64,000 nucleotides of DNA from positions 4,119,552 to 4,183,551 of the forward strand of contig OZ245864.1 of the NCBI GenBank assembly GCA_965229215.1, read 5' to 3'. This stretch comes from Tagaea sp. (GTDB lineage: Bacteria; Pseudomonadota; Alphaproteobacteria; CACIAM-22H2). The position numbers and the translations under genes are program-made. The notes below the pieces were generated by a model. The model had not been told where the DNA came from. It saw only the letters and a list, made by a program, of their open reading frames with translations, and searched no databases. Shown piece by piece: positions 16,746-64,000 of this stretch (position 1 is its first letter; every line of letters starts with the position of its first letter).

Positions 16746-17815
16746 GGCCGCCGCGGTACCATCGGTCCCGGCGGATTGAGATCGATCACCTCGACCGCGA
16801 AGCGCAGCGTCTGGCCGTCGCGCTTCACTTCCAGCGTCGCGCGGTTGCCCACGCCCGCGCGTCCGAACGCGTCGGCAAGATCGGGCACGTTGCGCACGCG
16901 CATGCCGTCGATCGACGAGATGACGTCGCCCACGCGCTTGGTTTCCGGATCGATCGCCTTGAGGCCGGCGCGCTCGGCCGGCGTGTTGGGCGCGATCTGC
17001 ACGACGACGGCGCCGTCGGCCCCCAGCTTCTCGGCCTCGTCCTCCGACGCGATGATCACGCCGATGCCCGGGCGCGGGACGCGGCCGTCCTTGATGAGCG
17101 CCGGCACGATGCGGTTCACGGTGTCGACCGGAACCGAGAAGCCGACGCCTGCCGAAGTCCCGCTGCGCGACAGGATCGCGGTGTTGACGCCGATCAGCCG
17201 ACCGCGCGCGTCGAGCAGCGGCCCGCCCGAATTGCCGGGGTTGATCGCGGCGTCGGTCTGGATCACGCCGGCGACCTCGCGGCCGGCCACCGTCGGCAGC
17301 TTGCGGCCCAGCGCCGAAATGATCCCCTGCGACAGCGACCGATCGAGTCCGAACGGATTGCCGATGGCGAAGACGAGCTGGCCCACGCGCAGCCCGTCGG
17401 ACGCGCCGCGCGCGATGGGTTGCAGGGGCGCGTCGGCGCGGTCGAGGCGGATCACCGCGAGGTCCACTTCCGGCGCCATGCCGACGACGCTGGCGGGCAG
17501 GCGGCGCGTGCCGTCGAACGTGACCGACAGGATGCGTCCCTCGGCCAGGCCCTCCAGCACATGCGCGTTGGTGACGATGTGGCCGGCCGTGTCCCATACG
17601 ATGCCGGATCCCGCCCCGTCGCCCGCGCGCAGACGCTCGCTGGTGCGCGCCCCGCCGGTGTCGCGCCGCAGCGAGATCGCCACGACCGAGGGAGCCGCCC
17701 GCTCGAACAGCCCGACGATCTCGCGTTCCAGCGCTTCGAGCTGCTGGGCGCGCGCCGGGGCGTGGCCGGCGAGGGCGAAGGCGAGAACCGTCAGGGCAGG
17801 CAGAAACCGTCTCAT
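16742..17815 (-). CDS. HtrA/Deg-family periplasmic serine protease with one PDZ domain
   Basis: Signal peptide; GSG..TNAHV, DLAV and [15 protein letters not shown] catalytic triad; C-terminal PDZ. Confidence 0.9.
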
Positions 17816-52386: not shown

Positions 52387-52431
52387 CTCGTGTAAATTCA
52401 CCGAGTCGTGTCGAGTTGCGGGGGGCATCGG

Positions 52432-53049
52432 ATGTTTCGCATGAAGGTCGCCCTTGTGGCGGCGTTTCTGTCGGTGTGGGCCTTTCCGGCCGGTGCGCAG
52501 GATCTGCGCAGCGGCCTTGATGCCGTCAAGCGCGGGCAATGGGCCGTCGCCCTTCAGGATCTGACGCCGCTCGCCGAAGCCGGCAATGCCGCGGCGCAAT
52601 ACGCGCTCGGCACGATGTACGCGAATGGCGACGGTGTCGAACCCGATCTTGTGCGGGCCGAAAAGCTCCTCCGGCAGGCGGGACAGGGCGGCGAGTGGCG
52701 AGCGCGTGCCCATCTCGAATTCATGCGCGTCTCGGGTCAGTTGGCGCCGGTCGCACCTAGCGGCACCTCGAACGGTGTCGCCGCCGTCGCGGGTGCCGAC
52801 GGCTGGCGCGTTCAGCTCGCGACGGTGCCGTCGTCGGAGTCGGCACAGCGGGAATTCCGCCGCCTGTCACGTCAGTTCGGCGAATTGCTGGCCGGAACCG
52901 ATCTGCTTGCGCCGCCGTTCAAGATGCCGGACGGCGCGCAGGTCGTGCGTGTCCAAGCTGGTCCGCTCAGCGAAACGCGCGCGCGCGACATCTGCGCGAA
53001 GCTGCGCGATCTCAATGCTGGTTGCCGGGTGATCCGCCCGGAAGGCTGA
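52432..53049 (+). CDS. Exported Sel1-repeat plus SPOR-domain protein
   Basis: Signal peptide, AEAGNAAAQYALGTMYANGDGV (Sel1), WRVQLA...RVQAGP...C...C (SPOR). Confidence 0.82.
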   Translation: MFRMKVALVAAFLSVWAFPAGAQDLRSGLDAVKRGQWAVALQDLTPLAEAGNAAAQYALGTMYANGDGVEPDLVRAEKLLRQAGQGGEWRARAHLEFMRVSGQLAPVAPSGTSNGVAAVAGADGWRVQLATVPSSESAQREFRRLSRQFGELLAGTDLLAPPFKMPDGAQVVRVQAGPLSETRARDICAKLRDLNAGCRVIRPEG

Positions 53050-53052
53050 AGC

Positions 53053-53280
53053 TCAGGCGGTTGTGACGGCCTGTTCTGTGCGCCGGAACATGTCCGGATT
53101 CATCAGCGCCGCGAACGAGAATGTCCGTTGGATGGAAGCGTTATCGAGCCGGCGAAGACGCGCGTGCGGAATCTTGTTGGGGTCCTGAAACACCAACTCG
53201 ATCTCCCAGCTGATCGATTCGCGTCCGATCGCGACGAACCGGTCGCCGATCTTGAAGCCGTCATTCTTGTTTCGAAACAT
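53053..53280 (-). CDS. Small hypothetical protein (75 aa)
   Basis: Protein-like composition in a slot with no competing gene; FKIGDRF...W...PHARL. Confidence 0.55.
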   Translation of the reverse strand: MFRNKNDGFKIGDRFVAIGRESISWEIELVFQDPNKIPHARLRRLDNASIQRTFSFAALMNPDMFRRTEQAVTTA

Positions 53281-53627
53281 GCGCTATCGTCACTTCACGT
53301 GGTGCAAATGTAATTTGAATCTAGTCGCTTGACGCCGCGTCGTAAAGACCCGCGCAGGGATCGACGCAGATGAGTTTGTCTGCCTGTGCTTCTCAATTGT
53401 GCCGCAGGTGCGGATCACGCGTCTCTCCGGCATGGATGGCGGATCCGCGAATATGCCTGCGTCCATTCAATTCGCAAATTGCAAACGCCGTCTAGAGCAG
53501 GATCTTGAGTCTGTGCAAAATGCAACATGGCAGATGGCCGCAAAAACGCGCGACTCCATGGGCTTAATGCTAAACTTCGCATCGAGTCGCGAGCTTATTG
53601 CATGCGATCGACAGCACGGCACGGATC

Positions 53628-54494
53628 ATGACGGATTTGCGCATTCCATACCGCGCATCGACACCGATTCTGGGGGTTCTCGTTTTGCTTTCTGCGCTGT
53701 TCGGGTTCGCGCGCGCGAACGAGGAGCCGTTCCGCTGGGCGGTGTATTACGGCACTGATGCGCCGGCGGATTCGTTTGTCGGCTATCGCATGGTCGTTTT
53801 CGATTCCGACCGGCATCCGGACATCGAGCCGATCGCCGTGCGTCGAACGCAGGTCCTCGGCTATCTGAGCATCGGCGAAGTCCACCGTACGCGTAGCTAT
53901 TTCGCGGAAGTCGAGCGCGAAGGGCTGTTCGTCTACGAGAATCCGACTTGGCCCGGCGCCTTCGCGGTGGATGTCCGCGATCCGCGCTGGCGCAAGCGCA
54001 TCGTCGAGGAACTCGTGCCGGCAATCCTCGCGCGCGGCTTCCATGGCGTGTTTCTCGACACCGCCGATACGGCGATCGATCTCGAGCGGCGCGACCGGGC
54101 GAAGTTCGCAGGCGCCACGCTTGCGACCATCGAACTCGTGAAGGCGATCCGCAGCCGCCATCCGCAGGCCGTCATCGTTCTCAATCGCGGCTACGAGATC
54201 CTGCCTGCGGTCGAGAACGTGATCGATATGGTGCTTGCCGAATCGCTGGTCACGGCGTGGGATTTCGAGAACAAGTCGCCGCGTCTTGCCGCCACGGACC
54301 AGCGCGCCGCAGAAATCGCGCTTCTCACCGCCGCGCGCAAGCGCACGCCCAAGCTCCGCCTCCTAGCGCTCGAATACTGGACGCCGGATGATGCCGCGAA
54401 GATCAAGTCGATCTATTCACAAGTCCGTGCTCTCGGGCTGGCGCCCTATGTCGCGACGGTGGCGCTCGACCGCTTGGTACCAGAGCCGCGATGA
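53628..54494 (+). CDS. PelA-hydrolase-like endo-alpha-1,4-galactosaminidase (GH114/GH166-like)
   Basis: Signal/TM; WAVYYG, GYLSIGE, GFHGVFLDTAD, NRGYE and LAES catalytic motifs. Confidence 0.82.
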   Translation: MTDLRIPYRASTPILGVLVLLSALFGFARANEEPFRWAVYYGTDAPADSFVGYRMVVFDSDRHPDIEPIAVRRTQVLGYLSIGEVHRTRSYFAEVEREGLFVYENPTWPGAFAVDVRDPRWRKRIVEELVPAILARGFHGVFLDTADTAIDLERRDRAKFAGATLATIELVKAIRSRHPQAVIVLNRGYEILPAVENVIDMVLAESLVTAWDFENKSPRLAATDQRAAEIALLTAARKRTPKLRLLALEYWTPDDAAKIKSIYSQVRALGLAPYVATVALDRLVPEPR

Positions 54495-56740
54495 GGCGGG
54501 TCTTCGTCCTAGCCCTTTGTCTTGTCGGGATGCTCCTGCCGGGCGCGTCCGATGCGCAGATCCTGCAGCGCCGGGTTTTCATCCTCTGGGATTCGTCGGT
54601 GACAGCCCGGTGGCGTGACACATTTGCCCACCTGATGCTCGAGATGCCGCTCAACAGGCTTGGTTACGTCGTCGAGCCGGTAGACGTCGCCGGGAAGATG
54701 CCCGAAGCGTCCGCATTCGAAGGTGTGCGTGCGGTCGTTTCGTGGCTCGAGGCGGACACCGTACCCGATGCGCGCGCGGCTTTCGGATTCATCGATGCCG
54801 CCACGGCCCGCGGTATGCGCTTCGTGCAGATCGGCGACGCGGCCTATCTGCGCGGGCGCGACGGCACCGCGAGCGTTACGAATGCCGAGGCCAACCGGGT
54901 TTTCGCGCGCGTCGGCTTCCGTCTCGCCGAAGATTTCGTCCGCCTCACGTTCGACGTCGAGGTCCTGCGCAAGGATTCCGCGATGGTCGAGTTCGAGCGG
55001 CCGCTCGACCGCATCCTCCCGCCTTATCCGGTCTGGCGACCGCTCGACACGCGCACGCGCTCGCTGCTGGTCCTGCGTCGGCAGGGGCAGCCGGAAACGG
55101 AAAGTCATGTCGTGATGCTGGGGCCGGGCGGTGGGCTCGCGAGCTTCGGCTATTCGCATTTCTACGAACCGGAACTCAAGCGCCGGCAATGGCGCCTCGA
55201 TCCGTTCGCATTCCTGACGGCCGCGCTGGGTGCTGGCGAAGGGCCGGTTCCCGATGTGACGACACTGGTCGGGCGGCGGATCTATTTCAGCCATATCGAC
55301 GGCGACGGGTGGCGCAATGTCACCGAGATCGTGCCTTGGCGGCGGACGCGCAAGCTCTCCTCCGAGGTGATCCTCGACGAGATTCTCCGGCGCTATCCCG
55401 ATCTTCCTGTGACGGTCGGCCCGGTCGTCGCCGATCTCCATCCCGACTGGTGCGGCTCCGACGAGACGCGCGACATCGCGCGGCGGATGTTCGCCTTGCC
55501 GAACGTCGAGGCAGGCAGCCACAGCTGGACCCATCCGCTCGACTGGAAATTCTTCGATGATCCGGATATCGCCGCAAAGGAACGCCCGTTTCTGCGTCGC
55601 TATCCCGGCTGCCGCTCGGAACCTTCGCGTCTCGTAGCGCTCTACGACCGGATCCGCAAGCGGATCGCCGGTGTTGGCGCGGACGCGGATGACCATTCGG
55701 ATTTCGACGGACAGTACGGGACGATCGGAAGTTACAACACGCCGCGTTCGTTCGCGCTGGTGCCATTCGACATCGACCTGGAGATCCGGAGCGCGGCCGA
55801 ATATCTGTCGACGCTTGCGCCGGCGGGCAAGGGTGTGCCCGTCATCCAGTGGTCCGGGAACACGCTGCCGTTCGAGGCGGTGCTGCGTGCGGCCCGTCTT
55901 GCAGGCATGCGCAACATCAATGGCGGCGATACGCGCTACGATCGCGAGTACAATTCGCTTTCATACGTGGCTGCCATCGGGCGGCGCGTCGGCGCGGAGC
56001 GCCAGATCTATTCCGGCGCTTCGAACGAGAACACCTACACCGATCTGTGGAGCGACCGCTTCTTCGGGTATCGGGCGCTCATCGAGACGTTCGAGCGGAC
56101 GGCATCGCCGCGCCGTCTCGTGCCGATCAATCTCTACTACCACATCTACAGCGGCGAGAAGGAAGTCGCGCTAAAGGCGCTTCACGAGAACATCGCCTAT
56201 GTCCACGCTGCCGAGATCGTTCCGATCTTCGCATCGGAATATGCGGCAATCGCCGAGGGCTTCTACGAAGCTGTCATCGAACGCCTGGATGACCGGCGCT
56301 GGCGGATATCGGACCGCGGCGCGCTCCAGACGCTGCGTTTCGACCCGCCGCTTGACGATATGAGGGTCGATATGAAGCGTTCGACCGGCGTCCTGGGCTA
56401 TCGACACGACATGGGTGCGCTGTATGTGGCGCTCGATCCTGCCGTCGAAACATCTGTCGTTGCGCTAGCCCGCGGCGAGGCGGGCGCGCAGCCTTCGCTT
56501 GTCGACTCACGCTGGCCGGTCGCCGCGCTGTGGCTCGATGGTGACGGCTTTTCCTTCATTGCGGGCGGCTTCGGGGCTGGGGAGATGCGTTGGCGCGCCG
56601 TACCCCGGGCGCGCTACCGCGTCACGTCCGGGAGATCTCCCGCAATCGAAGTCGTCGCCGACGGCGAAGGCCTGCTTGCCTTCACGCTCGATCCGGTCGA
56701 CGGTCGGAAAGTCGATGTGCGCGTCGCGGGGCCGCTGTAA
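54491..56740 (+). CDS. PelA-like polysaccharide deacetylase (CE4-like) protein
   Basis: Signal peptide; PVPDVTTLVGRR, SHIDGDG, AGSHSWTHP, WSGN, NINGG, NENTYT and YYHIYSG motifs. Confidence 0.82.
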   Translation: MRRVFVLALCLVGMLLPGASDAQILQRRVFILWDSSVTARWRDTFAHLMLEMPLNRLGYVVEPVDVAGKMPEASAFEGVRAVVSWLEADTVPDARAAFGFIDAATARGMRFVQIGDAAYLRGRDGTASVTNAEANRVFARVGFRLAEDFVRLTFDVEVLRKDSAMVEFERPLDRILPPYPVWRPLDTRTRSLLVLRRQGQPETESHVVMLGPGGGLASFGYSHFYEPELKRRQWRLDPFAFLTAALGAGEGPVPDVTTLVGRRIYFSHIDGDGWRNVTEIVPWRRTRKLSSEVILDEILRRYPDLPVTVGPVVADLHPDWCGSDETRDIARRMFALPNVEAGSHSWTHPLDWKFFDDPDIAAKERPFLRRYPGCRSEPSRLVALYDRIRKRIAGVGADADDHSDFDGQYGTIGSYNTPRSFALVPFDIDLEIRSAAEYLSTLAPAGKGVPVIQWSGNTLPFEAVLRAARLAGMRNINGGDTRYDREYNSLSYVAAIGRRVGAERQIYSGASNENTYTDLWSDRFFGYRALIETFERTASPRRLVPINLYYHIYSGEKEVALKALHENIAYVHAAEIVPIFASEYAAIAEGFYEAVIERLDDRRWRISDRGALQTLRFDPPLDDMRVDMKRSTGVLGYRHDMGALYVALDPAVETSVVALARGEAGAQPSLVDSRWPVAALWLDGDGFSFIAGGFGAGEMRWRAVPRARYRVTSGRSPAIEVVADGEGLLAFTLDPVDGRKVDVRVAGPL

Positions 56741-59700
56741 TGACCGCGATGCATGCACACACCGGCGGGCAGTTCGCGCTGGCGGCGGCGCTCGTCGGGA
56801 CCAGCCTGTTCGCCAGCATCCTGATCGTCCCGAATACGCGCGAGCGTGCGGTGATGCATCTGCGCGACCGGGAATTCGACGAGGCGCGCGAGATGTTTGA
56901 GGCACGCCTCGTCGAAGCCGGGCCATTGCTCGAGACGGTCGTACCGCTTGCACGTCTCTATGCCCAGCGCGGCGAACTTGATCGCGCCATCAGGATCATC
57001 TCGGAGCTCATCGCATCCGGTCGGGTCGAGGGGCGCGGCGCCGTCGACGCGCGCAGGCTCATGTCGACCTATCTGCGCTGGGCGGGCCGTGAAGCGGAGC
57101 ATCGCGCCAACCTTGCGCAGATCGTGCGACTGGACCCCGCGCCGGAGAATCTGCGCGAGCTTTCGGCGCTCTACAGTTACGCCGGTGATACCGGTGCGCA
57201 GATCGATGTGCTCTCGCGGCTAGTTGCCCTTCCGGACGCCCTTCCGGACGATTTCGTCGATCTAGCCGAACTGCAGGCAAGCCAGCGCCGCTTCTCCGCC
57301 GCCATCGCGACTCTCTCGACGCTTGCAGCCCGGATGCCCGAAAAAGTCGATGCATCGATGCTCGACCTGTGGCTGATCGTTTCGCTCGAGGCGCGCGACT
57401 TCGACGGCGCCGTTTCGCGTGCGCGCGCGCATCTCGCCGTTCGCTCGCCGCCACCAGACGTCGCCGCCGTGATCGGCGCGTTCGCCAGCCAGCGGGTGCC
57501 GAAGCTGGGCGTGGCTGCCCTGCAGCCGCTGGTCGAAAGGATGGGATCGGATGCGGCCACGAACATCGCGCTGATACGGCTCGCAATCGACGCCGAGATG
57601 CCGGCGCTCGCGTCGGACCTGTTCGACCGCCAGATCGCGCGCGGTGCCGCGTCGCTACAGTTCGCCCAGATCGGCGACCTCATCGATATCGGGCTCGTCG
57701 TTGAACGCGTCGATGCGGCGATCAATCTCGCGCGGATGGTCGATCTGTCCGCGCTAAGCGTCGCGCAGCTCGAAGCGCTGGCGGGACAAGCCCTGGACAG
57801 GCGCCAGACGGAATTCTTGCGTGCGATCGCGGCGGCAATGGGGCCGGATCGGCTCGACGCAAATCCCGTCCTCGCCGCACGGATGTATCTGACGCTCGAC
57901 GATCGCGCGCGCGCGGTCGAGCAGGCGCGGCGCGCGCTCGTGCGGCCCGGCCTGTCGCTGGAAGAATCGCTGACGCTCGTCCAGATTTTCGCCGGCGCCG
58001 ACCGGCCGGGCGACGCGCTTGGCCTGCTTGCGCGACTGGCCGAGGACCCGGCCTTGCCGGAGGGTTCGATCGGCGACATGGCGCAGCTCTATCTTCTGCT
58101 CAAGCGTGCACCCGAAGCGGTCGTGGTCTTCGAACGCCTGCGTGCACGCCGGCCGAACTCGCTGGCGGTCGCCACGGGCTGGGCGCTGGTGATGGCGCAG
58201 GCCGGACGCGGCGATGCGGTGGCTCGCTGGCTCGACGCCGGCGCGCCTGATGCCCTGCCGGGCCCCGTCGTCACGGATCTTTTCTTCATCGGCGGTGATG
58301 CCAAGTCACCCGCACTCCAGCTGGCGGCGGCCCGTCGGCTGCGGGCTCTTGAAGGGCCCACGCCGGTCGCGCGGCTGCGCCTGGCGCAGGCGGCCCTCGC
58401 CGCCGGACAGGCAGTCGAGGCACTGGACGAGGCGCGCAGCCTGCGTTCGTTTCTCGCGAACGACGAAGTCGACGCGCTCTATCGCGAATCCCTGACGCTT
58501 GCCGCACGTCGGGATACGCGCCTGCAGGCCGAACTGCGTGGCTACTGGCGCGCGCGACTTACAGATACGAGCCTGATCGCGGCAGCGCGGGAGGAGGCCC
58601 TCTATGGCCTGATCGACGCGCGGGCATGGGACGACGCGTTGCCAGAGCTCGCGCGACGCGCACGCACCGCACCGGCTGAATGGCTCGGCGCTTTCGTCAC
58701 TGCCGCGAGCGACGCCAGGCGCCTCGAACTGGCGATTCCGGTGCTTCTCGACGTCGCCCAGCGTGCCGAACTTCCCGCCGCCACGCGCCGCGAGGCGACC
58801 TATGCGCTCATCGAGCGCACGCCGCCTTCCGTGCATCTGCCTGCCCTGCGCAAGGCCGCCGCCGATCTCGGCGGCGAATGGCAGGACGCACTGGAAACCG
58901 CGCTCGAACGCGTCGGTCGACGCGACGAACTGCTGGCGATGCTGATGCGGCGCGCGGCCGATTCCACCTTGCCTGCCGATACCCAGCGTGCGCTTGCTTT
59001 CCGGCTGCTCGACCTGTCGGCGAAGCCCGCGGCCCTTGCGATCTTCCAGCGTCTTGCTGCCGGTGCTCCGGTGCAATCGCCCGACGCACAGCAGACCCTC
59101 TTCCTGATGGGGCCGCGACCCGATGACGCCCAACTCGACTGGATCGAAGCGCAGACGCGCGCGGCTTCTCCGGCCGGGCGGATCGAATGGGCCCGTGCAC
59201 TGGTCGATGCCGGCGCCCCGCGTCGCGCGGCTTTCGCGCTCGAGGCGGACGCGGCCATCCCCGGTCGCGTGGGCGGGCCCGCGACATTGATGGCGGCCGA
59301 ATCCTACCTTGCGGCCGGCACGACGGACGACAAGGCCGCCTTCGCACGTGTGCTTTCTGCACGCATACCGCGCGAAGGTGATCCGGAAGGTGCGCGCCGG
59401 CTGGCTGAACTTGCCGCCGCCGGAAACCGCAATGACCTTGCCAGACTCGGTTACGAACGCCTTCTGCTGCTCGACCCGTCGCGGCGCGAAGCACAGCGGC
59501 AGGTCGGTTTTGCCGCCTTTGCCGAGGGCGATTTCGAACGGGCGAAGGCGCTCGTCGCCCGCTACCTCGCCGGAGCCGCATCGGGCCAGCCGATCGACTG
59601 GGAAGCGCATTACTATCTCGGCGAATCACTCTTTCGTCTGAAAGACCGCGCGGCCGCGCGGACGGAGCACGAGCGCGCCCTTGCGACGATCGAGGGGCTC

Positions 59701-59901
59701 GCCCGTCCTCCCTTTGCCGCGCGTGCGGTTCAGGCCTACCTGTATCACCGGCTGGGCCGTTCAGAGGAATCGGTGGTGCTCTACGGGCGTCTTCTGCGCG
59801 AGCAACCGCGCAACCGCGACCTACGTGCCGACTACGCCGGCGTGCTGCTCGAGCTCGGCCGGACGGAACTCGCCCGCGGCATACTGGGAGGCGGCACATG
59901 A
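56740..59901 (+). CDS. Large TPR scaffold protein (PelB N-terminal-like)
   Basis: About 1050 aa of helical TPR-like repeats with an N-terminal hydrophobic anchor; position in the pel-like operon. Confidence 0.7.
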   Translation: MTAMHAHTGGQFALAAALVGTSLFASILIVPNTRERAVMHLRDREFDEAREMFEARLVEAGPLLETVVPLARLYAQRGELDRAIRIISELIASGRVEGRGAVDARRLMSTYLRWAGREAEHRANLAQIVRLDPAPENLRELSALYSYAGDTGAQIDVLSRLVALPDALPDDFVDLAELQASQRRFSAAIATLSTLAARMPEKVDASMLDLWLIVSLEARDFDGAVSRARAHLAVRSPPPDVAAVIGAFASQRVPKLGVAALQPLVERMGSDAATNIALIRLAIDAEMPALASDLFDRQIARGAASLQFAQIGDLIDIGLVVERVDAAINLARMVDLSALSVAQLEALAGQALDRRQTEFLRAIAAAMGPDRLDANPVLAARMYLTLDDRARAVEQARRALVRPGLSLEESLTLVQIFAGADRPGDALGLLARLAEDPALPEGSIGDMAQLYLLLKRAPEAVVVFERLRARRPNSLAVATGWALVMAQAGRGDAVARWLDAGAPDALPGPVVTDLFFIGGDAKSPALQLAAARRLRALEGPTPVARLRLAQAALAAGQAVEALDEARSLRSFLANDEVDALYRESLTLAARRDTRLQAELRGYWRARLTDTSLIAAAREEALYGLIDARAWDDALPELARRARTAPAEWLGAFVTAASDARRLELAIPVLLDVAQRAELPAATRREATYALIERTPPSVHLPALRKAAADLGGEWQDALETALERVGRRDELLAMLMRRAADSTLPADTQRALAFRLLDLSAKPAALAIFQRLAAGAPVQSPDAQQTLFLMGPRPDDAQLDWIEAQTRAASPAGRIEWARALVDAGAPRRAAFALEADAAIPGRVGGPATLMAAESYLAAGTTDDKAAFARVLSARIPREGDPEGARRLAELAAAGNRNDLARLGYERLLLLDPSRREAQRQVGFAAFAEGDFERAKALVARYLAGAASGQPIDWEAHYYLGESLFRLKDRAAARTEHERALATIEGLARPPFAARAVQAYLYHRLGRSEESVVLYGRLLREQPRNRDLRADYAGVLLELGRTELARGILGGGT

Positions 59902-61487
59902 TCGCAGCCCGGCTTTGCCTGCTCATCTCAGCCTTCCTGTGGCCGGCTGCCGCCGTGGCGCAGGCGGATGGCCCGGTGCGCCTTGACCTGACCTGGAGCA
60001 TCGATGGGCCGTTGGCCAATGTCCGCATCGTGCCGGCGCGGCCGACGGACATGCGAATCGAGACGCGCGAGCGCGAGGTCATTGTCCGCTTTGCCCGCCC
60101 CATCGCGCCACCCGATGCGGGCATTCTGCCGCGCGAGCTTCCGAGATTTGTCGAAGGCGTCAATGCCGGGTTCGACACGCTTCTGCTTCTCGCGACACAA
60201 GGCAGCACGGTCGTGGCGCTGCGCGAGGGGGAAGGCGTCGTTGTGGTCGTGCGCCTGCCGGAAGTCGCCCCCGCCGCGGAGGCGGAGGAAACAGACGCCA
60301 TCATAACCGAGCGCGCCGAACGACGGCTCGAACGCCTGCGGGCGGCACTCGAAGCGCAGACCGGGCGGCCCGACCTAGCGCGCGGGCGTCTTGCCCTCCT
60401 CGAAGCGAAAGATCCGGCTGACGTCGAGACGCTGGCGCAGCTTTCCGGGGTCGAGCAGCAAATCGGCCGCCTGAGGCGTGCGAACGAAATGCTCGACCGG
60501 GCGATCGCGGCCGAGCCATCCAATCCCGATCTCACGCAGGCCCGCGCGGCGCTGTCGCGCGAGAGCGCCGGATTCGCCCGGGTGGAGCCGGAATACCGCC
60601 GTGCGAGTTCCGGCGAGAAGCGCTACATCGTCGGCATGCAGGCCGAAATGCCGATGGGTCTCGCCTGGCGTGCGACGGCCGCGTTCGATCAGGCCTATGT
60701 CGATAGTCCGTCAGTCCGCCGGCCTGTGGGGTACGTCGATCGCTTCAAGGGCATGCACCAGCGGGGCGCCCTTGGTCTGCAGTACGAGGACGAAGACGGG
60801 TCGCGCACGCACGCCCAGTTCTTCGGCAGTGCGCACAATGCCGGCGCCGGCCTTACTCGCGAATATGTCTTTGACCGCTCGCGTTTTTCGGCAGGAGTTG
60901 AAGTCGCGCGGCCTTATTGGGATTTCACCGAAAGCCTCGTATCCGACGGGACACGCGATCGGGCCTTCGTCCAGTACGCCCAGCCGTGGGTGTTCGGCCT
61001 GTCCGTGCGCGCCCGGCTCGCGGCAAACCGTTACGGCATGCCGGGCCTTGCCGACGGAGCGCGCTCCGCGACAGCCGACGGCGAACTGCGCATGCCTCTC
61101 GACGGGTTTGTGCGCGGCACGGCGCTCGCCTACGCTCTTGACGGCGAATACCCGTGGCAGGTCGCCTCGCGCGCCGACCCGGCGAATACAGGTGCGGAAT
61201 TCCGGCCGGTGCCGTTGCGCTACCGCGAAGTCCATGCGCTGCTGGCGAGCTATACGCTCGACTGGCGCCGCGATCTTGCCGGTTCGCTGCCGCTCGTCGT
61301 CGATCTGTCGGCCGGGCCCGGCTATGACCGGTATGGCCATCGCGGCGGGCCGCTTCTGGGGCTCGGCGTCGCGTGGGTCGACGACGGCTCCTTCAGCGGC
61401 GGGCTGCGGGCCGGTTACGGGCGCGGCGTGGGCCGCGACGCAAACGAGTATTCGAGCTTCGGAGGCTACGCGCAATGGCGGATGTAG
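59898..61487 (+). CDS. Putative outer-membrane beta-barrel exporter with TPRs (PelB porin-like)
   Basis: Signal peptide, short TPR segment, then alternating amphipathic beta-strand pattern ending GGYAQWRM. Confidence 0.6.
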   Translation: MIAARLCLLISAFLWPAAAVAQADGPVRLDLTWSIDGPLANVRIVPARPTDMRIETREREVIVRFARPIAPPDAGILPRELPRFVEGVNAGFDTLLLLATQGSTVVALREGEGVVVVVRLPEVAPAAEAEETDAIITERAERRLERLRAALEAQTGRPDLARGRLALLEAKDPADVETLAQLSGVEQQIGRLRRANEMLDRAIAAEPSNPDLTQARAALSRESAGFARVEPEYRRASSGEKRYIVGMQAEMPMGLAWRATAAFDQAYVDSPSVRRPVGYVDRFKGMHQRGALGLQYEDEDGSRTHAQFFGSAHNAGAGLTREYVFDRSRFSAGVEVARPYWDFTESLVSDGTRDRAFVQYAQPWVFGLSVRARLAANRYGMPGLADGARSATADGELRMPLDGFVRGTALAYALDGEYPWQVASRADPANTGAEFRPVPLRYREVHALLASYTLDWRRDLAGSLPLVVDLSAGPGYDRYGHRGGPLLGLGVAWVDDGSFSGGLRAGYGRGVGRDANEYSSFGGYAQWRM

Positions 61488-62515
61488 ATCCGATCAAGGC
61501 GCCGCGCCGGCGCCAATCCGACAAGCTCGCCGTGCCGACCGTCGGCCGGGCGCCGATGCTGCTCGGCGTGCGGCGCGGCGCGATCGTCGAGATCGCGGCC
61601 TTCCTGATCGTGGCGCTGGCGATCGACTTCGCGTTCCTCGATTTCGACAGGTTTGCCAGCCTGTCGCCGCATCCGTTCTGGATGATCGTGATCCTGTGCG
61701 CGGTCCAGTACGGAACCACCGAAGGACTGGTCGCGGCGGCGGCGGCGAGCGCTGCCCTGCTGATCGGCAACCTTCCGCCACCGAAATTCGACCAGGATCT
61801 GTACCAGTGGCTTCTGGTGGCGACGTTGCAGCCGCTGCTGTGGGTCGTCGCGGCCGTGATCTTCGGCGAACTCCAGGGGCGTGTCCGACGCGAGCGCGAT
61901 GTCCTGCGCGAGGAAGTCCTGCAGTCGCGCAAACGCGAGGAAGTCGTCGCGGCGGCATATCGCAAGCTCGACGCGCGGCGCGAAAATCTCGAGGCGCGCG
62001 TGGCCGGGCAGCTTCGCACGGTCTTCGCGATCTACAATGCCGCCAAGGGCATCGAGCACATGGCGACAGACGACGTGCAGGCTGGCGTGTCAGAGCTTGT
62101 CCGGACGGTCATGAGCCCGCGCCGTTTTTCGCTGTTCCTGCTTTCCGGCGAGGCGCTCAACCTTGCGATCAGCGAGGGATGGGATGAGTCCGAGACGGTC
62201 TACGCGCGCGCCTTCGACGGCCAGTCGCGCCTGTTCCAGGCCGTCGTGGGATCGCATCGCACGCTCGTCGCCGCCGTCGCCGAGGACGAGGCGATTCTGG
62301 GCGGCGAGGGTCTGCTCGCCGGCCCATTGCTCAATCTCGATTCCGGCGAAGTGATCGGCATGCTGAAAATCGAGGAAATGGGATTCCTCGACCTGTCGGT
62401 TACGTCGATCGAGAATTTCCGCCTGCTGTGCGAGTGGATCGGAACCGCCTATGCGCAGGCACGGCGCTTCGAAAGCGCCATGCACGGCATCGATTCCGGC
62501 GGAGCGAGGCCGTGA
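61475..62515 (+). CDS. pelD: PelD-like membrane protein (TM, coiled coil, GAF; no GGDEF)
   Basis: PHPFW..V...AVQYG, FGEL, coiled coil, GAF ending GMLKIEEMGF; protein ends soon after GAF. Confidence 0.7.
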   Translation: MADVDPIKAPRRRQSDKLAVPTVGRAPMLLGVRRGAIVEIAAFLIVALAIDFAFLDFDRFASLSPHPFWMIVILCAVQYGTTEGLVAAAAASAALLIGNLPPPKFDQDLYQWLLVATLQPLLWVVAAVIFGELQGRVRRERDVLREEVLQSRKREEVVAAAYRKLDARRENLEARVAGQLRTVFAIYNAAKGIEHMATDDVQAGVSELVRTVMSPRRFSLFLLSGEALNLAISEGWDESETVYARAFDGQSRLFQAVVGSHRTLVAAVAEDEAILGGEGLLAGPLLNLDSGEVIGMLKIEEMGFLDLSVTSIENFRLLCEWIGTAYAQARRFESAMHGIDSGGARP

Positions 62516-63633
62516 GCACCGCGACCGGAGACGACAGGCGACAGGGCCGCCGCAACCGCGAGCACGAGGAAATGCTCGCCCGACTGGCGCTGGTGGCGGG
62601 CTCTGCCCCAGTCGTCGAGACGGTGCTCTATTCGTCAGCGATGGCGGCGGCGACCGGATACGCGTGGTTCGCGGCTTCGCGGAACATATTCGGTTTCGTC
62701 GGTGTCCTTGCGGTCCATGGCGCCGTCTGCGCTGTGGGGCTGCTGTGGATCTGGACGGTTGTCCGGCGGTCGCGCGACCTACGGTTTCCTCTGCTCGCGG
62801 TCGGTTCGGCAACGGCCGTGGGGCCGTTCGGTGCGGCGGGCAGCGTGCTCTGCGCGCTGCTCTATGCGTGGTTCCGGCGCAGCACGACGAGCTTCGAGGA
62901 ATGGTACGCCGCCCTTTTCCCCGAACAGCAGAACGAGAGCGCCCGCACGCTATTCCAGGAGATCGTTTCCGAAGGGCGCGACGACGAAGTGGCGGCACAG
63001 TCGATCGCATCCTTCACCGACATCCTCGCCTTCGGTACGTTCGACCAGAAGCAGGCGCTGCTCGCGCTGATCGCGACCTATTTCCGCCCTGCCTTCGCGC
63101 CGGCCCTGAAGAGCGCGCTGGGGCATCCGGAACCGGCCATCCGCGTGCAGGCGGCCACCGCCGTGGCGCAGATCGAGCAGCGCTTCCTGCGCCGCTCGAT
63201 CGACCTCGACGCCGAGTTGGTGCGCAGGCCCCGTGATTTCCCGCTCGTCTTCGCTGCCGCCCGTCACTACGACGACTATGCCTTCACGGGCCTGCTTGAT
63301 CACGACCGTCAGGCAGAAAACCAGCGCCGGGCGATGAAGCTCTACAACGCGGCCCTGGAACTCGCACCCGAGGACGGACGGCTCGAATTCGGCATGGGAC
63401 GCCTGCTGGTCCGCATGGGCGAGTACCGGACCGCGGCGGATCTTCTCGCCAAGGCGGCCAATGCCGGGCGTCTGAAGCCGGGCGCGGCCGTCTGGTATCT
63501 CGAATGTCTCTTCCGGATCGGTGCGTTCGCGGACCTGCGGGATGCCGCCACCCGTATCGTGCCGCTGCTTGAAGGTGACGAGGGTGCCGACCCGCGCCTG
63601 CGTGAGGCGGCCCGCCTCTGGGCGCCGGTATAA
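62512..63633 (+). CDS. pelE: PelE-like membrane protein with HEAT/TPR repeats
   Basis: N-terminal TMs, LKSALGHPEPAIRVQAA HEAT repeat, YAFTGLLD, C-terminal TPRs; lies between pelD and pelF. Confidence 0.7.
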   Translation: MSTATGDDRRQGRRNREHEEMLARLALVAGSAPVVETVLYSSAMAAATGYAWFAASRNIFGFVGVLAVHGAVCAVGLLWIWTVVRRSRDLRFPLLAVGSATAVGPFGAAGSVLCALLYAWFRRSTTSFEEWYAALFPEQQNESARTLFQEIVSEGRDDEVAAQSIASFTDILAFGTFDQKQALLALIATYFRPAFAPALKSALGHPEPAIRVQAATAVAQIEQRFLRRSIDLDAELVRRPRDFPLVFAAARHYDDYAFTGLLDHDRQAENQRRAMKLYNAALELAPEDGRLEFGMGRLLVRMGEYRTAADLLAKAANAGRLKPGAAVWYLECLFRIGAFADLRDAATRIVPLLEGDEGADPRLREAARLWAPV

Positions 63634-63637
63634 GCCG

Positions 63638-64000
63638 ATGGCCGAATTCGAACCCGGAATCGACTTCAGGCGCGACGACGGCCCGGCCGACGTGTGTCTG
63701 CTTCTCGAGGGGACGTATCCCTACGTGTCGGGGGGCGTGTCGACCTGGGTGAACGACCTGATCCGCGCCCAACCGCATCTGCGTTTCCACTGCGTTGCTC
63801 TCCTCGCGGACCGCAAGGCGCGCGCATTCAAGTATCCGATCGCCGAAAACGTGCTTTCCCTCACGCATGTCTATCTCCAGCAGCCGCCGGCCGGCCCGAC
63901 CCACGCGCGCGGCATGCGCAGGCTGTTCCGCAGGCTCGAGCCGCTCATGCTCTCGATCCAGAGCCGGGGCGGGATCGGCGATCTTGCGGGGATTCTCTCG
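63638..64000 (+). CDS. pelF: PelF GT4 glycosyltransferase (5' part; runs off the window)
   Basis: Manual translation: MAEFEPGIDFRRDDGPADVCLLLEGTYPYVSGGVSTWVNDLIR, the PelF/DUF3492 signature. Confidence 0.9.
   Translation, partial: MAEFEPGIDFRRDDGPADVCLLLEGTYPYVSGGVSTWVNDLIRAQPHLRFHCVALLADRKARAFKYPIAENVLSLTHVYLQQPPAGPTHARGMRRLFRRLEPLMLSIQSRGGIGDLAGILS

Follow-up and report, generated by a model that had tools for sequence, protein, structure and literature searches.

A split-gene Pel operon in a Tagaea genome with no PelC found and a PelD that ends after its GAF domain

Can a Gram-negative bacterium make and export Pel with an operon that has no PelC gene and a PelD without its cyclic dimeric GMP (c-di-GMP)-binding domain? 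The question is raised by a 64,000-nucleotide (nt) stretch of the genome of Tagaea sp. (NCBI GenBank assembly GCA_965229215.1, contig OZ245864.1, positions 4,119,552 to 4,183,551 of the forward strand), called the window throughout, which carries seven pel genes at positions 53628-64000, all on the + strand and with overlapping or near-abutting ends. Pel is among the most widespread biofilm polysaccharides. In the Pel model based on Pseudomonas, PelC and the binding of c-di-GMP by PelD are treated as essential (PMC7890745, PMC12345266, PMC12141448). Our analysis identified a genuine split-gene Pel biofilm-polysaccharide operon of a Rhodospirillales bacterium. The split layout is already known, and what is new is that a Gram-negative operon lacks PelC and at the same time encodes a PelD without a GGDEF domain. 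We consider it quite probable that the operon is a working, reduced Pel system, which would make and export a Pel-type, partly de-N-acetylated alpha-1,4-linked N-acetylgalactosamine (GalNAc) polymer with neither a PelC ring nor a c-di-GMP site on PelD.

The genome consists of a single contig of 4.45 Mb and is 98.9% complete, the window being G000:C1:4119552-4183551. Since pelF runs past the end of the window, 20 kb of the same genome beyond and around it were included (locus L003, in which a coordinate equals the window coordinate minus 51000), and positions past 64000 are given as window equivalents. The complete operon comprises nine genes, all intact, in the order pelA(H)-pelA(DA)-pelB(N)-pelB(C)-pelD(short)-pelE-pelF-pelG-pelX (lengths in amino acids, aa; E, expectation value; TPR, tetratricopeptide repeat):

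53628..54494, + strand: g1 (pelA-H), a stand-alone periplasmic glycoside hydrolase with a signal peptide, corresponding to the hydrolase domain of PelA (GH114, PF03537, E 2.5e-19).
54491..56740, + strand: g2 (pelA-DA), 749 aa, with a signal peptide, a mixed alpha/beta domain, a deacetylase and a beta-rich C-terminus.
56740..59901, + strand: g3 (pelB-N), a 1053-aa TPR protein with an N-terminal hydrophobic membrane anchor, corresponding to the N-terminal and TPR part of PelB.
59898..61487, + strand: g4 (pelB-C), 529 aa, with a signal peptide, a beta-sandwich, TPR-like helices and a 16-strand outer-membrane barrel, corresponding to the PelB porin.
61475..62515, + strand: g5 (short pelD), 346 aa, with transmembrane helices and a GAF domain and no GGDEF domain.
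About 62572-63633, + strand: g6 (pelE-like), with membrane helices and a C-terminal TPR (TPR_19, E 3.2e-05); the start codon is uncertain.
63689 (approximate) to the window end at 64000 (window-equivalent end 65179), + strand: g7 (pelF), a GT4 glycosyltransferase with a DUF3492 N-terminus (E 5.6e-25).
Window-equivalent 65179-66561, + strand: pelG (PF16933, 395.2 bits against a cut-off of 29, model positions 1-452).
Window-equivalent 66581-67498, + strand: a pelX-like short-chain dehydrogenase/reductase (SDR) family epimerase (PF01370, 176.5 bits), directly after pelG.

An earlier reading, made from the letters alone (the sequence-only reading), had proposed a coupled operon of hydrolase, deacetylase, large TPR, TPR/barrel, PelD-like, PelE-like and PelF genes in a probable alphaproteobacterium, with pelG expected past the window. 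All seven genes were found on the + strand, and the nearest loci carry the titles Tagaea sp. and Rhodospirillales, in agreement with the proposed host. From 53628 to the window end, every long open reading frame (ORF) with family support lies on the + strand, and the boundaries of g2, g3, g4, g5 and PelG matched public gene calls letter for letter in an exact look-up. The profile check that had been suggested for the following stretch returned both PelF and PelG above their cut-offs and thereby confirmed a Pel-type system. PelF reached 472.8 bits on the NCBIfam equivalog model NF038011 (cut-off 100, model positions 1-489) and 263.3 bits on PF11997, and the start of pelG abuts the stop of pelF. 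The PelE-like gene was placed by the hydrophobic N-terminal segments in its translation and by its position between PelD and PelF, which is kept in 50 related loci. PelX has been described as a UDP-GlcNAc (uridine diphosphate N-acetylglucosamine) C4-epimerase linked to pel loci, and a position downstream of pelG was reported for 5% of pelX loci (10.1101/2020.05.26.111013). The epimerase found here, kept after pelG in three relatives at 76-84% identity, would be of the PelX kind by family and position.

With g2 as the query, one genome of each species was scanned for related loci; the 73 loci returned were scored with the nine proteins of the operon. Loci cut by contig ends were counted only for the traits that they cover.

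The absence of PelC, which had also been noticed from the letters, is visible within the operon itself. The 13-nt overlap of g4 with g5 leaves no space for a PelC gene at that place. Among the 50 related loci that have pelD, 24 carry an ORF of about 200 residues between the g4 homologue and pelD. One of these ORFs matched the solved PelC chains 5t0z, 9h80_C and 5t11 at E of about 4e-10, and four of the five that were scanned matched the CsgG and GNA1162-like lipoprotein families; PelC was accordingly scored as present in those 24 loci. A profile of the 24 homologues, which recovered all 24 of them, was run against the Tagaea genome translated in six frames (42,266 ORFs, minimum length 50 aa) and found no match at E<=10. 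PF05643 gave no match in this genome either, a weak negative, as the control genomes gave none. No PelC was thus found in the operon or the genome, and a PelC ring appears to be missing. A separate observation concerns two Azospirillum loci, A. rugosum (L028) and A. canadense (L030), whose PelF proteins are near-identical (end branches of 0.004 and 0.016). The spacing between barrel gene and pelD is about 30 nt in A. rugosum, against a 680-nt gap holding pelC in A. canadense, which suggests that A. rugosum, a cultured species, lost pelC very recently by a clean deletion.

The second reduction concerns PelD. Canonical PelD joins a four-helix membrane domain and a GAF domain to a degenerate GGDEF domain that bears the RxxD c-di-GMP site (PMC7890745). 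The first two parts are present in g5, which matched GAF_3 (PF13492, E 2.6e-11) and, weakly and below the cut-off, DUF4118 (E 9e-4), and whose structural model (mean predicted local distance difference test, pLDDT, of 82.5) comprises membrane helices, a long connecting helix and a GAF fold. The third part is missing, as g5 ends about 10 residues past the GAF domain. The evidence that connects g5 with canonical PelD is indirect. Its assignment to the PelD family is drawn from its architecture, its operon position, an identity of 45-54% along its whole length to 450-480-aa homologues with the extra degenerate GGDEF domain, the assignment of the Azospirillum lipoferum homologue in a 2020 catalogue, and the names given by JGI, which calls several relatives in the g5 cluster PelD, short ones included.

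The comparison with these three-domain homologues defines what g5 lacks. An alignment of 24 homologues (A1) is colinear across the membrane part and the GAF domain, where the proteins of Tagaea, of L036 (Nitrospinota) and of L067 end. Long forms occur in 38 of the 50 loci with PelD and carry a C-terminal domain of about 110-260 aa (all but three of these domains measure about 120-160 aa). Positions 328-455 of the PelD-alignment profile matched GGDEF domains in PDB (E 0.002-0.01), and 36 of the 38 long homologues have an RxxD aligned with the inhibitory-site RxxD of active cyclases, together with a degenerate GGDEF signature. The remaining 12 forms are short and end after the GAF domain, including all 10 of the Tagaea clade. 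No GGDEF remnant was found in any frame downstream of pelD in the short-PelD loci, which bears out the earlier claim of a PelD without a c-di-GMP-binding domain. The PelD_GGDEF model (PF16963) had no match in the Tagaea genome, a weak negative given that no control genome exceeded the cut-off. Furthermore, no stand-alone copy of the lost domain was found in the genome. A profile of that domain gave four weak ORF matches (E 2e-5 to 0.02), three of which lie at loci of ordinary GGDEF proteins (PF00990), and all four are likely to be such proteins. The genome encodes seven GGDEF proteins (PF00990) and thus uses c-di-GMP.

Short PelD proteins are not confined to Tagaea. In a search of 5.8 billion proteins with g5, the best 120 matches included 22 close relatives of 326-346 aa and further proteins of 318-377 aa with 46-55% identity, among which one carries the title Gemmatimonadales. 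Of these further proteins, nine were aligned (A5), and all nine end within about 15 residues past the GAF domain. A FastTree phylogeny of PelD was built on the 325 columns common to short and long forms, with proteins shorter than 310 aa and the partial P0073 dropped; of its 118 rows, 36 are short forms, and these require at least six changes of state, five of them forced by well-supported branches. Consequently, a PelD made of DUF4118 and GAF only appears to be recurrent, in at least five lineages, and not an oddity of Tagaea. A review describes a three-domain PelD for every Gram-negative studied and a GGDEF-less PelD in streptococci only (PMC7890745), and in the literature that we searched (open-access papers and bioRxiv) no description of a GGDEF-less PelD in Gram-negatives was found, those in streptococci being the only ones. 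We put forward, as a tentative proposal held at slightly below even confidence, that DUF4118 plus GAF alone may constitute a fifth PelD architecture in Gram-negatives, one that would have arisen at least five times within one pel clade and been paired with the loss of PelC in the Tagaea lineage. As a side observation, in L036 (a Nitrospinota metagenome-assembled genome, MAG) a 330-nt spacer (17372-17700) separates the short pelD from pelE; it contains conspicuous inverted-repeat-like stretches and no trace of GGDEF.

The Tagaea clade is set apart by the combination of the two reductions. No PelC and a short PelD were found in 10 of 10 Tagaea-clade loci that reach pelD, the present one included. 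Each loss also recurs elsewhere, and 16 further PelC-less loci with intact genes belong to other lineages. The clade loci span 54-95% protein identity, and dN/dS (the ratio of nonsynonymous to synonymous substitution rates) within the clade was 0.06-0.31 for pelD and 0.11-0.39 for g4, with dS near saturation for distant pairs. The reduced layout is therefore conserved under purifying selection. In a PelF tree of 47 loci (quick search, LG+G4 model, root not inferred), the Tagaea clade formed one branch with a Shimodaira-Hasegawa-like approximate likelihood ratio test (SH-aLRT) support of 100, placed within a Rhodospirillales group with Azospirillum, Thalassobaculum and Ferrovibrio (SH-aLRT 95). 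The PelF phylogeny that had been suggested as a check thus recovered a distinct branch, but one nested in a group with the same split layout. On this tree, at least seven changes of PelC state and at least two changes of PelD length are needed. Two members of the clade on this tree, L011 and L021, are titled 'uncultured Azospirillum sp.' and 'Asaia bogorensis' MAG. These record names look like misassignments, and the places of their g2 genes match those in G017 and G006, genomes of the same genus as the window.

The two PelA functions are encoded by separate genes, as the sequence-only reading had claimed. Compared with PelA structures in PDB, g1 matched residues 5-247 of 9cgy (E 2.2e-18) as well as 5tcb (E 2.3e-17). 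The deacetylase gene g2 had no Pfam or NCBIfam match, and its earlier call as a deacetylase was upheld by a match to residues 248-838 of 9cgy (E 1.7e-59). Together, g1 and g2 span PelA end to end; the break falls exactly at the border after the hydrolase domain, and the start of g2 overlaps the stop of g1 by 4 nt. The catalytic residues are described for Pseudomonas aeruginosa PelA as D160 and E218 in the hydrolase and H526, D528, D530, H600, H604, E723 and H761 in the deacetylase, with D517, D519, H589 and H593 in the crystallised P. thermotolerans PelA (PMC12022489). In HMMER alignments to 5tcb and 9cgy, D160 and E218 are matched in g1 by Asp and Glu. In the alignment to 9cgy, g2 has HIDGD, HSWTH, NEN and YYH at the positions of H526/D528/D530, H600/H604, E723 and H761, with chain-to-residue numbering mapped by counting along the printed alignments. 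Because these residues are conserved, both hydrolase and deacetylase activities are probably intact. A second, divergent deacetylase gene with 53% identity to g2 was observed on another contig (L022; G017:C70) of the MAG that also gave L011; the other pel genes were not detected on its 14.6 kb.

PelB is likewise not fused, with the TPR part in g3 and the porin in g4 in place of a TPR array and a C-terminal 16-strand porin within one protein. At the level of sequence, g4 had a TPR family match, and its profile gave only generic TPR matches against solved structures. The AlphaFold2 model of g4, built on 28 homologues (mean pLDDT 90.1), runs from a signal helix through an eight-strand beta-sandwich (residues 29-119) and five TPR-like helices (129-222) to 16 barrel strands (226-528). 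Its top Foldseek match in PDB was chain M of 9h80, the PelBC complex (E 4.9e-16, template-modelling score 0.69 on the target), which we take to be PelB, followed by BcsC and PgaA; the barrel is 14% identical to the solved Pseudomonas protein. The reading of g3 and g4 as a split PelB is supported by three Acidobacteriota loci (L024, L052 and L068), in which one ORF holds a g3 homologue followed by a g4 homologue from about residue 110-135 on. The g4 part of these fused ORFs lacks the signal peptide and the beta-sandwich. In the split forms the beta-sandwich (window 59985-60254) is conserved with the consensus GRELxLRF...GYDTLLL, and a possible function is docking to the TPR half. When the C-terminal TPR part of g3 (residues 100-330 of alignment A4) was modelled together with the N-terminal domain and TPR of g4 (residues 23-235), the complex scored 0.61 and one control 0.64, so that the score carries no weight in either direction.

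Both splits are real according to the relatives, since the fused PelA of L046 and the three fused PelB proteins keep their parts in the same order as the split genes. Among loci with both halves found, PelA is split in 48 and fused in one, with no g1 homologue within reach in 16 further loci, and PelB is split in 46 and fused in three. The 73 loci include titles from Azospirillum (many cultured species), Thalassobaculum, Caenispirillum, Roseospira, Ferrovibrio, Magnetococcales, Gammaproteobacteria, Acidobacteriota and Nitrospinota. As a trait of the clade, the split layout is thus widespread and common, and it has already been published. Two adjacent PelA genes with PelC, PelF and PelG are tabulated for Magnetococcus marinus MC-1 and A. 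lipoferum 4B in supplementary file 9 of Bundalovic-Torma et al. 2020 (PMC7112194), with PelD given there for A. lipoferum only, and pelB fission and pelA rearrangement are mentioned in the text of that study (PMC7112194; preprint text). A distinct architectural class is not supported for the layout as a whole, two of the four proposed differences being shared by the clade, and of that class there remain the losses of PelC and of the PelD GGDEF domain, specific features that each recur elsewhere. A later PelA survey demanded more than 85% coverage of the full-length protein (PMC12022489) and would by design not return split forms. The change between the two forms may have been a fission or a fusion.

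Compared with pelABCDEFG of P. aeruginosa, the Tagaea operon runs through the same sequence of functions (hydrolase and deacetylase, TPR and porin, PelD, a PelE-like protein, PelF, PelG), with the same PelA catalytic residues and a barrel fold nearest to PelB of PelBC. It differs in having two genes each for PelA and PelB, a genome without PelC, a PelD without the degenerate, c-di-GMP-binding GGDEF domain, and a pelX-like epimerase after pelG. The loci of A. lipoferum 4B and M. marinus MC-1 share the two adjacent PelA genes (groups PelA_G2-1 and PelA_G7) and have two unassigned genes at the place of the split PelB; however, PelC is tabulated as present in them (PMC7112194). The Azospirillum loci of the present set agree in gene order, with 44-47% identity in g2, and differ in their 450-480-aa PelD with the RxxD domain. 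In most of them the epimerase lies upstream of pelA on the same strand, whereas it follows pelG in the Tagaea clade. The sister lineages Azospirillum and Thalassobaculum combine the same layout with PelC and a full three-domain PelD.

Among Gram-positives, the streptococcal Class IV PelD (PMC7890745) also lacks the GGDEF domain and the c-di-GMP site, and Pel production with a GGDEF-less PelD is reported in Streptococcus intermedius (PMC12345266). In contrast, the Tagaea protein consists of DUF4118 and GAF only, and its host is a Gram-negative with seven GGDEF proteins. In Bacillus cereus (pelDEA(DA)FG plus a separate glycoside hydrolase gene), the PelA functions also reside on separate polypeptides. 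The Tagaea PelA genes differ in being adjacent, translationally coupled and covering PelA end to end, and the outer-membrane export parts are kept.

By analogy with the Pseudomonas model, we infer that the product is most likely a Pel-type, partly de-N-acetylated alpha-1,4-GalNAc polymer. The PelX-like epimerase would supply UDP-GalNAc for polymerisation by PelF, which would work with PelD, PelE and PelG in a complex at the inner membrane. The chain would be processed in the periplasm by the stand-alone deacetylase g2 and trimmed there by the stand-alone hydrolase g1. The membrane-anchored TPR protein g3 and the barrel g4 could jointly do the work of PelB and carry the chain out. With no PelC ring found, export would depend on the g4 barrel alone. 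Since PelD ends after its GAF domain and the known RxxD site is absent, activation of the synthase is probably not licensed by binding of c-di-GMP to PelD, and may be constitutive under transcriptional control or respond to another input.

Several observations weigh against this reading of a working Pel system. In P. aeruginosa, all seven pel genes are reported as essential, PelC included (PMC12345266, PMC12141448), so that export may be poor in a Gram-negative system without PelC, or may rely on a substitute that has escaped recognition. The PelC negative comes from one clade-specific profile and from one Pfam model that was silent in its control genomes. For g3 and g6, the family and PDB matches are generic TPR ones. 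Against the g5 model, Foldseek ranked generic GAF domains first and placed PelD (4etx) at rank 29 (E 4e-4), and single-sequence and profile searches with g5 gave no significant match to solved PelD (in the profile search, PelD appeared only at E of about 1). Moreover, g2 occurs in 13 of 20 other genomes of the same genus, so the operon is dispensable and about a third of the genus is without it. Three RNA sequencing runs with the same species label had no reads on the operon; a DNA run had just two, so that these data are uninformative on expression.

One alternative is that the operon is a decaying or export-defective remnant, in which secretion was disabled once PelC and the receptor domain of PelD were lost, and the genes persist only by inertia. 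The requirement for PelC and PelD c-di-GMP binding reported in P. aeruginosa (PMC7890745, PMC12345266, PMC12141448), the seven same-genus genomes without g2 and the very recent pelC loss in A. rugosum relative to A. canadense are compatible with such decay. However, all nine genes are intact, the reduced layout holds across the whole clade in spite of its protein divergence, dN/dS stays at 0.06-0.39, and PelC-less loci with intact genes recur in other lineages, so we regard a remnant as very improbable. We also find it improbable, though less so, that the operon makes a related but different polymer and not Pel proper. The clade is distant from Pseudomonas, identity to the solved Pseudomonas proteins is low (as in the barrel), and PelD, PelE and the TPR part are unrecognised by curated Pel-specific models, PF16963 among them; yet PelF exceeds its equivalog cut-off nearly fivefold at full length, both PelA active sites are conserved residue for residue, and the operon carries an epimerase of the kind whose role in Pel has been described (10.1101/2020.05.26.111013).

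Somewhat more credible than these two, but still unlikely, is that the synthase continues to be licensed by c-di-GMP after translation through another receptor, such as a protein of the synthase complex, a trans-acting receptor or the GAF domain itself. A signal to be sensed exists, given the GGDEF proteins of the genome, and the RxxD kept in nearly all long PelD proteins of the sister operons suggests ancestral control by c-di-GMP. GAF domains that bind cyclic nucleotides (Lcd1 with cAMP, PDE5A and PDE2A) are among those closest in fold to the GAF domain of g5, but this similarity is generic. Additionally, no extra domain was detected in PelE, PelF or PelG, the lost PelD domain has no stand-alone copy that we could find in the genome, and the comparison of loci revealed no new gene gained by the operon in the Tagaea clade. 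We continue to favour a working Pel system whose synthesis is probably not switched by c-di-GMP binding to PelD.

If the tentative proposal of a fifth PelD architecture paired with the loss of PelC is true, Pel synthesis in the Tagaea lineage would be uncoupled from c-di-GMP binding by PelD in an organism that uses c-di-GMP, and outer-membrane export would work without a PelC ring, both of which are held to be required in Pseudomonas. A conserved Gram-negative operon without PelC and without the c-di-GMP switch represents a natural experiment, as culturable sisters in Azospirillum and Thalassobaculum keep both, and the Tagaea and sister operons together offer a direct test of what each contributes. 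Surveys based on PelC or on full-length PelA would be expected to miss the Tagaea clade. Across a sample of 301 alphaproteobacterial genomes, PelF exceeded its curated cut-off in 12, the present genome (G000) included; the sample contains the unpublished G233 and G058, both without a PelF match. Outside the genus, g2 was found in none of four genomes from other genera of the family and in one of 16 from other families of the class.

The surroundings of the operon add some minor features, of which the region directly upstream is the closest:

53282..53627, no strand: upstream intergenic region, G+C 0.585 against 0.65-0.70 within the operon.

This is likely the regulatory region of the operon. 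A promoter scan found no sigma-70 consensus on its + strand, and promoter and terminator scans of the + strand gave no candidate close to where the operon begins or ends, with counts no higher than in shuffled sequence. About 580 nt upstream of the operon, window positions 52408-53049 (+ strand) encode a protein of 213 aa that contains a Sel1 repeat as well as a SPOR domain. It weakly resembles AlgK (E 8e-6) and ExoR, a regulator of exopolysaccharide (E 4e-5), both matches falling far short of the cut-offs. A possible small ORF of about 70 codons was noticed by eye on the - strand next to the intergenic region, at about 53060-53285, although the translation at these coordinates contains stop codons.

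Two candidate reading frames were rejected. An ORF at 60478-62187, in another frame over g4 and g5, had no family match in Pfam or NCBIfam and was taken as a shadow frame of high-G+C DNA. A + strand ORF of 335 codons after pelX seemed conserved in three relatives, but its product is of low complexity and rich in Arg, Gly and Pro, and an FtsJ-like methyltransferase gene (PF01728, E 8e-12), convergent with the operon, lies on the opposite strand. It was therefore rejected as a shadow frame as well, which places the end of the operon at pelX. Between the methyltransferase gene and a gene for a conserved 468-aa multi-pass membrane protein lies a DUF1194 gene (PF06707, 243 bits; L003 17413-18198, - strand, window-equivalent 68413-69198). 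In the downstream stretches fetched from three relatives, tblastn found no match to this gene, and only about 55-80 nt separate the frame opposite the methyltransferase gene from the membrane-protein gene.

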